Sequence record: OR786310.1
From: Escherichia phage ETEC-TG
Reading direction: 5' to 3' (one strand)
DNA length: 64,000 bases
The position numbers are program-made. Positions 15,001 through 18,000 of this stretch are shown here, piece by piece; the stretch's first letter is position 1; each line of letters opens with the position of its first letter.

Positions 15001-18000
15001 GCAGAAGTTGATGCTATGCGATACAGCTACGGTGAAATCATTCCTTTTACTCTTGAACAAGAAGGAGCACATCGTGTTTAAAGTAGGGTTTACTTATAAA
15101 TTCAAAAGCGTTGCTGACCAAGGAGCTATGGCAACACAGGACAAAGCAAATATTGCTGTTTGCCAAGCGATTGGAAACGAAGTTTTCAAAGTTATGAATA
15201 CAGATGATAAGTATGGTCATGTTCTTGAGTTTTATACCAATGGTACCCTTTATACAGCAGGTGTTACCCCAGGGTTTAATTCGTATACTTATTTGATTGA
15301 TAACGAAGAATTTAAATATTTTGAAGAAGTAAAGGAGGAAACAATGGGTAAAGCAGAACCACAATGGCATGTTGTGATCGTAGGATCAGAGTGTGTAGAT
15401 GTTTGTTCTAGTTTTGAAAAAGCTTCTGAAGTCGCTACAAAAGCTAAGAAGGATTATCCGTCGAAGACGGTTGAGATTTACGCTCGTGTTGCAGTAGCAA
15501 ACGCCACAATCACTATTGATAAGGAGTAAAGCCAATGTTCAAAGAAGGTCATGTCTACCGTTTCCAGGATGAAGATTATATGCGATTATATTCTACCTTT
15601 GATAACAGTATGGCTGCTATCATTGGAGAGAATTTTTTCGAGGTGTTGAGCACTGATGCAAATGGTAATATCTTGTCAATTGTTGTGATAGGGAGAGACG
15701 GTATTATCACTGCTAGTGATGGGGATCGTTACATAATCAATTCTGCTCATATAGATTATTTTGTTGACGGTGGTATTCGTGGTAGTCGTGGAAAACCCCA
15801 AGAAGAACCTGTTGATACAACAAAAGAAGAGTGGTATGTTGTAATGACTGATGACACCTGTATTTCTGGATTTGAAAGTTATGAAGAAGCTTTGAAAGAA
15901 GCAGCAGAGCATAAAATGGCTAATCCTACAGAAGAGGTTGAAGTTTATAAACGTTTGGTTGTTGCTACCATTGGCGTATCTTTTGTTTAAAAGGTGAATG
16001 TTATGTTTAAAGTTAATGCTGTTTACTGTTTCAAAAGTAAAGCTGCATGTGAAGCTTTCTCTATGATCTCTGATGAAAATTTAAAAATGGCAGCTTTGAT
16101 TGAAGGGTCTTGTTTCCGCGTCGAAGATGTTAGTGAATCAGGGTCTGTTTGCTCATTGACTTTATTGGACAGCGGGGATATTATTGAAGCTGGACAGTAT
16201 CCGTTCAGGAGTTGGGAGATATTGTTAGCTCGCGGAGAGCGTAACTTTTTTATGTGCGTGTCTGCGGGGGAAGTTGTGAAAGAAACTAAGGATGTTTCTG
16301 TTTACAATTCTGAATTTATAAGTTATAGTGAGTATCAACATCTGGAAGGCATTGTTGGTCACTTGTTATCTCTGATTGACATTGAATGTGACTTGCCTGA
16401 ATCATTGAAAGAAGAGTTGAAAGCATTAGATCTGCTGTAATGTTTCGCACAACGAAAGGAGAATAAGATGAATCTGACCGAACAGTTACGCCGTATTGCA
16501 AAAGAAGCTTCCTTCAACTTCCCTGTTGAAGAAGTGATCGAGACATGTTTTGCTGAAGCACGAGCGGGAAACTCTTCAAGAAATTTCACGCCATCCGATT
16601 TTGGTCTGAATAATTCTCCCACCCACCCAGAGCAGATCTACAATCAGGTGAAGTGGATGGATGAAGCAGTAGCAATTCTTCGTGAGCGTGGGCTTATTGT
16701 TTATAAAGAAATGGATCTGAACGGGGCATACGAGTGGATCACTATTGATTGGTCCGAGGTGAAATGATGAAAGGTAACAAGATGAAAGTTAATCAAGTGC
16801 CGAGCGCATACACTTTGTGGCTTGCGCGAGCATTACACCAGACGATCAAAAACCCTAAGAAGCCAATGAAGAGCGGGAAGAAGTTTATGTCTAAGGGCAA
16901 AACAACCTTTGGCTTCACTCGTATGTCTGTTAAGATGAAAAGACTGGGGTACAAGCCAAACTACGCTCGTTACCCTTCTGAATACAACTGGTTTGACTAA
17001 AAGGAAAAAGCAATGGCAGGTTTGAAACTGGAGATGTTGACAAAGCAAGAATTTGTTCCCGAACACGGTGAAACTTACATTGCTTTCTTGATTAGTGATT
17101 TTTATGGGGATTTAGAGTATGTTGAACTGGAGTGTGAGTTTCACTACCAAATGATCGACGCAGAAACTGGTTATTGTCTGGGTACGTCTGCGGTGTATAA
17201 TGGTGATAATGGCATTCCTTTTCATACCCCAATGAGGTACGAAGCGAAAAACCGATTCAAACTTCTCACAGAAGAAGAAAAAGAGACATATAAATATCAC
17301 GAAGAGGAGGATCAACGCTTCTGGTGGGAGAAAACTTGGTTCCTGTCTGATCGCCGTAATCTTCAGATTCACCCAGAAGAACTGGATGAAATGTCTATTG
17401 GCATTATGAAGAAGAAAGACTTCATGTTCCAGGTGAGAGAGGCTGATAAGCTCCGTATTGCAATTAAAGAGGAGAACAAAACATGAAAACATCTATTCGC
17501 GTAAAACATGATCCAAACAGCAGTTACCCATACGCGGATGTTGAACGTCATGAAGGAGACTATTACACCATAAAACGTAAAGTCCCAACTGATACAGGGT
17601 TTAACTTTGATGTTATTGCGCTGGATGATCAAGGTGTTGATAATCTGGTGAATGCATTACTCGCATTGAAGGAAGTACGACATGAAAATCAGACTAAAGG
17701 TAAAGTGGCTTTCGATTCTTGTGATCGTTTAGCCGAAGAGATTGCCGAATGGCGTGACACTAACTAAAACAGGAGAAAGATTATGGCTACTTTTCAACAA
17801 CTGAAAGATGTTTCACGTTTAGTAAGAAAAATCCGAGAAGCAGACGCTGCTGTGCGGAATGCATTAACGCCAGCAGAGCGCGAAGATCTTGAAGAGGAGG
17901 TGAAAACAGCCGAGAATGCTTTTGCTGTGTATCTTGCAACACTACATACAGGAGGTTAAATGTCAGAAGAACTTAAAGAATTTTATCAAGCATATCATAA

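Follow-up and report, generated by a model that had tools for sequence, protein, structure and literature searches.

A variable tandem array of GoF-like genes in Escherichia phage ETEC-TG and related Stephanstirmvirinae

The locus and its three genes

We analyzed a 64,000-nucleotide stretch of the genome of Escherichia phage ETEC-TG (accession OR786310.1), referred to here as the window, and characterized three consecutive genes in it, designated A, B, and C, whose products are very probably anciently diverged members of the phage GoF/Frd.2/MotB.1 family. The phage belongs to the genus Phapecoctavirus in the subfamily Stephanstirmvirinae; positions 14400-17000 of the window are 99.0% identical to Escherichia phage dw-ec of the same genus, and 122 phage records match this region. 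The features of the locus are as follows (window coordinates; aa, amino acids; ORF, open reading frame).

15074-15529, + strand: gene A, 151 aa, GTG start; predicted GoF-like N-terminal beta-barrel (about residues 1-88), short linker, and beta-beta-alpha-beta C-terminal domain of the 'VEIY' type (about residues 97-148)
15535-15990, + strand: gene B, 151 aa; the same two-domain architecture as in A; ortholog of the N-terminal part of phAPEC8 gp239 and of EcG1_225
16003-16440, + strand: gene C, 145 aa; predicted GoF-like N-terminal domain (residues 1-88), disordered acidic linker (90-104), and C-terminal helices (108-126 and 133-141)
14887-15081, + strand: 64-aa ORF, PHROG 24303, without assigned function, outside the GoF-like family
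16001-16035, + strand: deletion junction relative to phages with a 261-aa gene, encoding two N-terminal domains, between B and C

The original prediction had placed three consecutive genes with MFK starts at 15074-16440, and the ORFs were indeed found there, their products beginning with MFKVGFTYKF (A), MFKEGHVYRF (B), and MFKVNAVYCF (C). The three follow one another head to tail within a tightly packed series of small genes of one orientation without assigned function; this block is presumably an early or host-takeover one. A Shine-Dalgarno-like sequence precedes each of the three (AAGGAG 7 nucleotides upstream of the start in A, AAGGAG in B, and AAGGTG in C). The GTG start of gene A overlaps the TAA stop of the upstream 64-aa ORF. 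In the dw-ec record, gene A is annotated from an upstream ATG as a 172-aa product overlapping the 64-aa ORF (coding sequence [CDS] UJQ43697.1; L001 3217-3735, equivalent to window 15011-15529), whereas phages iGC_PHA_EC001 and tuntematon carry an ATG at the position of the GTG and are annotated from there. The GTG is favored over the upstream ATG by the alignment of the family, by the Shine-Dalgarno sequence, and by the ATG that other phages have at this position; the start in the dw-ec record is probably wrong, and the product is probably 151 aa long. Besides, numerous implausible short antisense CDSs are annotated in that record.

Shared domains of the three products

The products of A and B were similar over their full length (BLASTP; 26% identity over 147 residues, E value of 4e-15). 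The N-terminal domains (N-domains) of the two matched on their own with an E value of 2e-6 over 83 residues, and so did the C-terminal domains (31% over 52 residues, E value of 7e-10), which contain the motifs W(H/Y)VV and VE(I/V)Y.R..VA. Residues 1-83 of A also matched C (31% over 83 residues, E value of 2e-6), and the pairwise match between B and C was marginal (E value of 0.013). A profile of A/B-type sequences from which C had been left out matched residues 1-88 of C with a probability of 97.9% and an E value of 4e-13 (hhalign). Thus, the resemblance is not confined to the start-proximal codons, an outcome that would have spoken against the original prediction, but extends over an N-domain of about 88 residues in all three products. 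The C-terminal domain that had been claimed to be common to the first two genes was likewise recovered, as a segment of about 52 residues shared by A and B and absent from C.

No start codon in the window other than those of A, B, and C is directly followed by the motif FK....Y.F, and a family-wide hidden Markov model (HMM) of 73 domains matched only these three ORFs, leaving no fourth member in the 64 kb; the family HMM detected B with an E value of 2e-18. A search for further paralogs, first with HMMs of 3 sequences and later of 73 domains, yielded none, the next best ORF having an E value of 0.015 over 20 residues. The 64-aa ORF looked by eye like a stand-alone domain of the C-terminal type, but the C-terminal-domain HMM did not match it and this candidate was rejected; the N-domain HMM did not match it, either.

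Homology to the GoF family

GoF together with Frd.2 and MotB.1 was described in 2025 as a family with an 'LSm-like fold' in Tevenvirinae, the T4-like phages (Kim et al., PMC12152347). When the A/B-type profile, constructed without GoF, was compared by hhalign with a GoF profile constructed without any window sequence, the two matched with a probability of 97.7% and an E value of 1.6e-12. The GoF profile also matched C (97.0%, E value of 1e-10), and its match to B alone reached 52%; the A/B-type profile matched T4 Frd.2 (76.9%, E value of 2e-5). In a small sequence set, the family HMM detected T4 GoF at 4e-23, Frd.2 at 8e-9, and MotB.1 at 4e-4. Furthermore, an N-domain profile that included T4 GoF retrieved the GoF proteins of T4-like phages from 5.8 billion proteins with E values of about 1e-27.

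A profile search of 1.84 billion cluster representatives yielded 64 matches at an E value of 1e-3 or lower. Four proteins (P0151, P0164, P0173, and P0187) were dropped from this exhaustive search as repeat or low-complexity artefacts, and the other matches were small phage-type proteins starting with MF.....Y.F. Their C-terminal modules were of the 'VEIY' type, the GoF type, the C type, or a coiled coil, and some of the proteins carry two barrels. The C-terminal-domain profile found no significant match in the 5.8-billion-protein database, and a single-sequence search with B returned close orthologs only.

None of the three products matched Pfam or NCBIfam at threshold. Below threshold, A scored 16.2 bits with FRD2 (PF03197; threshold, 29), 21.2 bits with DUF2782 (26.8), and 15.8 bits with DUF7336 (25), and B and C did not match any of these three families; FRD2 was the commonest sub-threshold Pfam match among relatives (6 of 25). 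A sequence search of solved structures found no match. In PHROGs, B matched phrog_3710 over its full length (E value of 2.5e-32) and C matched phrog_22975 (E value of 2e-99); the N-domains of A, B, and C matched phrog_3710, 622, and 5347 and, weakly, the goF PHROGs 13003 and 2980 ('goF mRNA metabolism modulator'). PHROGs 3710, 22975, 622, and 5347 are separate clusters without function, for which no relation to each other or to GoF is stated. A few GenBank records already name orthologs 'goF mRNA metabolism modulator', and most records call them hypothetical.

Predicted structure

AlphaFold2 models were of high confidence for A (predicted local distance difference test score [pLDDT], 92.5) and for the N-domain of C (above 94; 81.7 for C overall). 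Structure prediction, a check that the original prediction had named, agreed with the sequence comparisons: the N-domains in the two models show an identical order of secondary-structure elements, namely, a strand (residues 7-10), two helices (13-20 and 24-33), three strands (about 37-43, 49-55, and 58-62), a helix (77-82), and a final strand (83-87). After the N-domain, A continues with a strand-strand-helix-strand unit (99-103, 106-111, 114-127, and 133-137), and C continues with a disordered linker (90-104) followed by two helices of low confidence; the pLDDT of the linker is 70 in A and 38 in C. The N-terminal barrel is modeled as a bent, antiparallel, SH3-like five-stranded fold, as has been reported for GoF, for which the T4 literature uses the term 'LSm-like'. 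The topology of Sm, LSm, and Hfq proteins, one N-terminal helix followed by five strongly bent strands, differs from that of the N-domain (beta, two helices, beta-beta-beta, helix, beta), in which the pairing of Sm topology with structural proximity to Hfq or Sm proteins was not observed.

The nearest solved structural neighbor of the N-domain is FeoA, as published for GoF. In BFVD, 76 to 77 structural matches were found at an E value of 1e-3 or lower, chiefly uncharacterized proteins of T4-like phages, and those of C include an annotated 'GoF putative mRNA metabolism modulator' of phage VR7. Judging from these matches, some T4-like phages have many members of the family: Pectobacterium phage PM2 accounts for at least five of the proteins, and at least eight are UniProt entries with the prefix A0A873W, which probably come from one genome.

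T4 GoF (ComC-alpha, 141 aa), with its family, is among the closest known systems. Like A, B, and C, GoF has a five-stranded barrel of about 85 to 90 residues that begins at the first residues and follows the pattern F, Y.F ... F.V ... FF; this is followed by an acidic flexible linker and a variable C-terminal domain. It is also a small acidic protein encoded amid small genes without assigned function, and its nearest solved structures are likewise FeoA and the SH3-like domains of the DtxR type. A flexible linker and a C-terminal domain that varies from member to member, as described for the family, are both present here (beta-beta-alpha-beta in A and B; two helices in C). There are differences as well. 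The phage that carries A, B, and C belongs to Stephanstirmvirinae, not Tevenvirinae, and such phages are not mentioned in the description of the family (PMC12152347); we take this to widen the range of the family among phages and not as an argument against homology. A, B, and C form one tandem array of varying copy number, whereas in T4 goF is separated from motB.1 by about 1 kb, in which cef and motB lie, and frd.2 is found at a distance of about 140 kb. The 'VEIY' C-terminal domain of A and B has no detectable relation to that of GoF, and GoF residue D25 is not conserved, being aligned to Q22 of A and I22 of C (alignment read by eye).

FeoA and the SH3-like C-terminal domains of DtxR, IdeR, and SloR are only 7 to 15% identical to the N-domains, and have no sequence relation to them through Pfam or solved structures; the locus, moreover, offers no context of iron transport. 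The resemblance to ClpS, the adaptor of the ClpAP protease, spans about half of ClpS at 16 to 20% identity and has no sequence signal; it is probably generic, reflecting a common small alpha/beta arrangement.

Variation of the array among phages

Related phages differ at this locus, a variable array whose content ranges from 1 to 4 genes and from 1 to 5 N-domains. We defined the slot as the interval between the homologs of window genes 14433 and 16468; in Justusliebigvirus alia, the slot was taken as at most 4 kb from its single match. The contents were as follows.

Justusliebigvirus alia: 1 gene
phAPEC8: 2 genes
phiWec179: 2 genes
The window, dw-ec, tuntematon, and iGC_PHA_EC001: 3 genes (A, B, and C)
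vB_Ec-G1: 3 genes with 4 barrels, i.e., B', a 261-aa protein (two barrels and a 'VEIY' domain), and C
ESCO37: 4 genes with 5 barrels, i.e., A, B, the 261-aa gene, and C

Changes to the array arise through deletion or recombination at the gene starts that its members share, through fusion of paralogs in frame, and through swaps of C-terminal domains. Apart from lacking the 261-aa gene, the window is colinear with ESCO37, and the junction lies inside the shared gene start ATGTTYAAAG; window positions 16001-16035 align with the starts of both the 261-aa gene and C (blastn against vB_Ec-G1 and ESCO37). In phAPEC8, gp239 is an in-frame fusion that joins an N-domain with 95% identity to that of B to a C-terminal domain with 97% identity to the one in the 261-aa protein; compared with vB_Ec-G1, 787 bp are absent and the junction has an overlap of 11 bp. 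Exchange of C-terminal domains is seen in the metagenomic protein P0085, with an N-domain 92% identical to the barrel of A and a 'VEIY' domain sharing 22% identity with that of A and 73% with that of P0134. In the slot of a syntenic metagenomic contig (L013) are three other members, which are 24 to 36% identical to A, B, and C, whereas most flanking products are 66 to 87% identical. Gene A is found in only 23 of the phage records carrying B. Wherever A was present in the examined records (dw-ec, iGC_PHA_EC001, tuntematon, and ESCO37), the 64-aa ORF was there too, and vB_Ec-G1 and phAPEC8 lack the two of them.

The original prediction explained the trio by local tandem duplication. The genes are indeed tandem paralogs, but a recent local event does not agree with the data: the N-domains of A, B, and C are 24 to 30% identical to each other and 30 to 40% identical to members from other phages, and blastn found no DNA similarity among the three genes within the window beyond about 11 to 35 nucleotides at the gene starts. 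Because DNA similarity ends with the first codons, any duplication must be ancient. Adjacency, common orientation, equal size, and a common N-terminal motif are what a recent duplication in the lineage of the window phage would produce, and yet we regard such an event as very improbable, since the N-domains have equally close relatives in other phage genera, C carries a different C-terminal module, and A and the 64-aa ORF come and go jointly in the examined records. Taken with the patchy presence of A and the different members in L013, the equally close outside relatives indicate that the array is old and not a fresh duplication in this phage. Tandem duplication may still be its ultimate, ancient origin.

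Selection and charge

The ratios of nonsynonymous to synonymous substitution rates (dN/dS) against orthologs were 0.04 to 0.22 for C and 0.17 to 0.46 for B, and both genes, judging from these sequence comparisons, are clearly under purifying selection. All three products are acidic, with predicted isoelectric points of 5.0 (A), 4.4 (B), and 4.4 (C), and the N-domains have a net charge of -4 to -5.

The makeup of the array suggests one other role, in which its members would neutralize host defense or restriction proteins, with swaps of the C-terminal module tracking variable targets, as in a counter-defense or host-range array. Such a role would fit with a gene content that differs among near-identical phages, with domain swapping, with slot proteins that are at most 36% identical where most flanking products reach 66 to 87%, and with the high dN/dS of gene A; the proteins are, moreover, small, acidic, presumably early, and dispensable. 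Even so, we consider this role rather improbable.

The surrounding block of small genes

Paralogy in this region is not limited to A, B, and C. A second family is encoded on the + strand at 12990-13334, 13309-13692, and 17960-18274, with the pattern FYKAW...SGLC.CL...GLDYNFPF...RI.WV.D; the products of 12990 and 17960 are 36% identical (E value of 2e-15), and that of 13309 was assigned by eye. This family is probably the one that the original prediction called family A. A further pair, at 13954-14184 and 18670-18891 (+ strand), shares the pattern MKIRI...YVFF (37% identity, E value of 3e-13). Together, the pair and the second family indicate that the block of small genes contains several dispersed paralog families.

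The metagenomic protein P0180 (141 aa) is a chimera: its residues 1-53 are 64% identical to the product of window gene 13954, and the rest, read by eye, matches the 261-aa GoF-like protein of vB_Ec-G1 and ESCO37 in its C-terminal part, the two segments meeting near the shared motif 'EGWF'. Such a chimera implies that short-homology recombination across the block deleted about 2.5 kb. Downstream of the array, too, the genomes are mosaic: between window 16766-17500 and the corresponding part of ESCO37 (L014 3360-3846), a 210-bp gene is found only in ESCO37 and a 157-aa gene (17013-17486) only in the window.

Just upstream of the packed run, window 11449-12608 (about 1.16 kb) contains no + strand ORF of 45 aa or longer. 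It is AT rich (GC content of 0.34), its GC skew is reversed, and it contains degenerate repeats resembling AATAATAATCATT; comparable gaps without annotated genes are present in relatives (about 1.5 kb in vB_Ec-G1 and about 1.8 kb in alia). This segment may be a regulatory, promoter, or origin region. Scans of the window for tRNA genes and Rfam families gave no match.

Possible mode of action

What is known of the family comes from T4. Mutations in goF suppress the growth defect on rho mutants, and the variant GoF(D25Y) lengthens the mRNA half-life of a reporter with the gene 41 leader independently of Hfq (PMC12152347). The reporter responds only slightly to wild-type GoF and MotB.1, and the knock-outs grow normally; D25Y is called a gain of function by the authors, and the suppressor changes D25Y and G84R are both in the barrel (PMC12152347). 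None of the multimer models of GoF was confident (Kim et al., PMC12152347). In a CRISPRi-ART screen, T4 frd.2 came out as a fitness gene (PMC11879866).

In the reading that we prefer, A, B, and C would be made early, as accessory proteins of host takeover. The conserved barrel would act as a docking module on a common partner, a protein rather than RNA, and the variable C-terminal module would set the specificity, i.e., what is done to or with that partner; the likeliest field of action would be the fate of mRNA or the RNA machinery of the host during takeover. A role in mRNA fate is favored on the strength of the goF suppressors of rho mutants and the mRNA half-life under GoF(D25Y), and protein-protein contacts are favored over general RNA binding on account of the acidity of the three proteins and of their barrels. 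We propose this mechanism only tentatively. Weighted together, family membership and mechanism make a reading that we hold to be fairly probable.

Several points weigh against it. With regard to the family, the comparison of the A/B-type profile with MotB.1 gave a probability of 2.4%, i.e., no detectable relation. A MAFFT alignment and a long hhalign match hinted that the C-terminal domain of A and B might be related to that of GoF, and this was rejected, the C-terminal profile alone reaching 0.4% against GoF. With regard to the mechanism, early synthesis is read from gene context only, and a scan for promoters and terminators around the array stayed at the level of the shuffled background. 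The preference for protein over RNA comes from net charge. The dN/dS of gene A was 0.58 to 1.07, on 10 to 16 substitutions, so that constraint on this gene is not demonstrated.

The same T4 data have been taken in another direction. If the members were direct RNA binders or chaperones of the LSm/Hfq-like kind (Kim et al. 2025), the barrel would shield phage or host transcripts from nucleases and the paralogs would serve different RNA targets. GoF(D25Y) does raise the half-life of the reporter without Hfq, and both D25Y and G84R map to the barrel (PMC12152347); besides, A, B, and C are firmly linked to GoF by homology. Against this stand the near absence of a reporter effect of wild-type GoF and MotB.1 and the gain-of-function nature of D25Y (PMC12152347), the acidity of A, B, and C and of their barrels, the lack of conservation of D25 (Q22 in A and I22 in C), and the element order of the N-domain, which departs from the Sm order. 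We therefore think direct RNA binding unlikely, and place it below the docking module as an account of the barrel.

A broader version of the docking module can also be imagined. The GoF-type barrel may be a general docking module for one conserved target in large virulent coliphages of at least two subfamilies, and the array in Stephanstirmvirinae may be a hypervariable locus that shuffles barrels and C-terminal effector modules at the linker and at the conserved gene starts so as to track variable host factors, such as defense proteins or variants of the RNA machinery. This is speculative, and its likelihood appears low.

Significance

What wild-type GoF does has been unsettled since the isolation of the goF suppressors of rho, and the family was recognized in 2025 in T4-like phages only (PMC12152347); its presence in Stephanstirmvirinae is not described in the literature that we searched. 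A GoF-type barrel is now seen in another subfamily of large E. coli phages, in 1 to 5 copies in a single slot. For annotation, three hypothetical genes can be corrected to GoF-like, and the start of gene A in the dw-ec record can be revised. The analysis reveals no new mechanism. Its use lies in the natural domain swaps, fusions, and copy-number variants of the array, which are ready material for genetics and for finding partners. If the array does consist of docking modules, then A versus P0085, B versus phAPEC8 gp239, and the two-barrel 261-aa protein would be natural chimeras with which the role of wild-type GoF and Frd.2 may be found.

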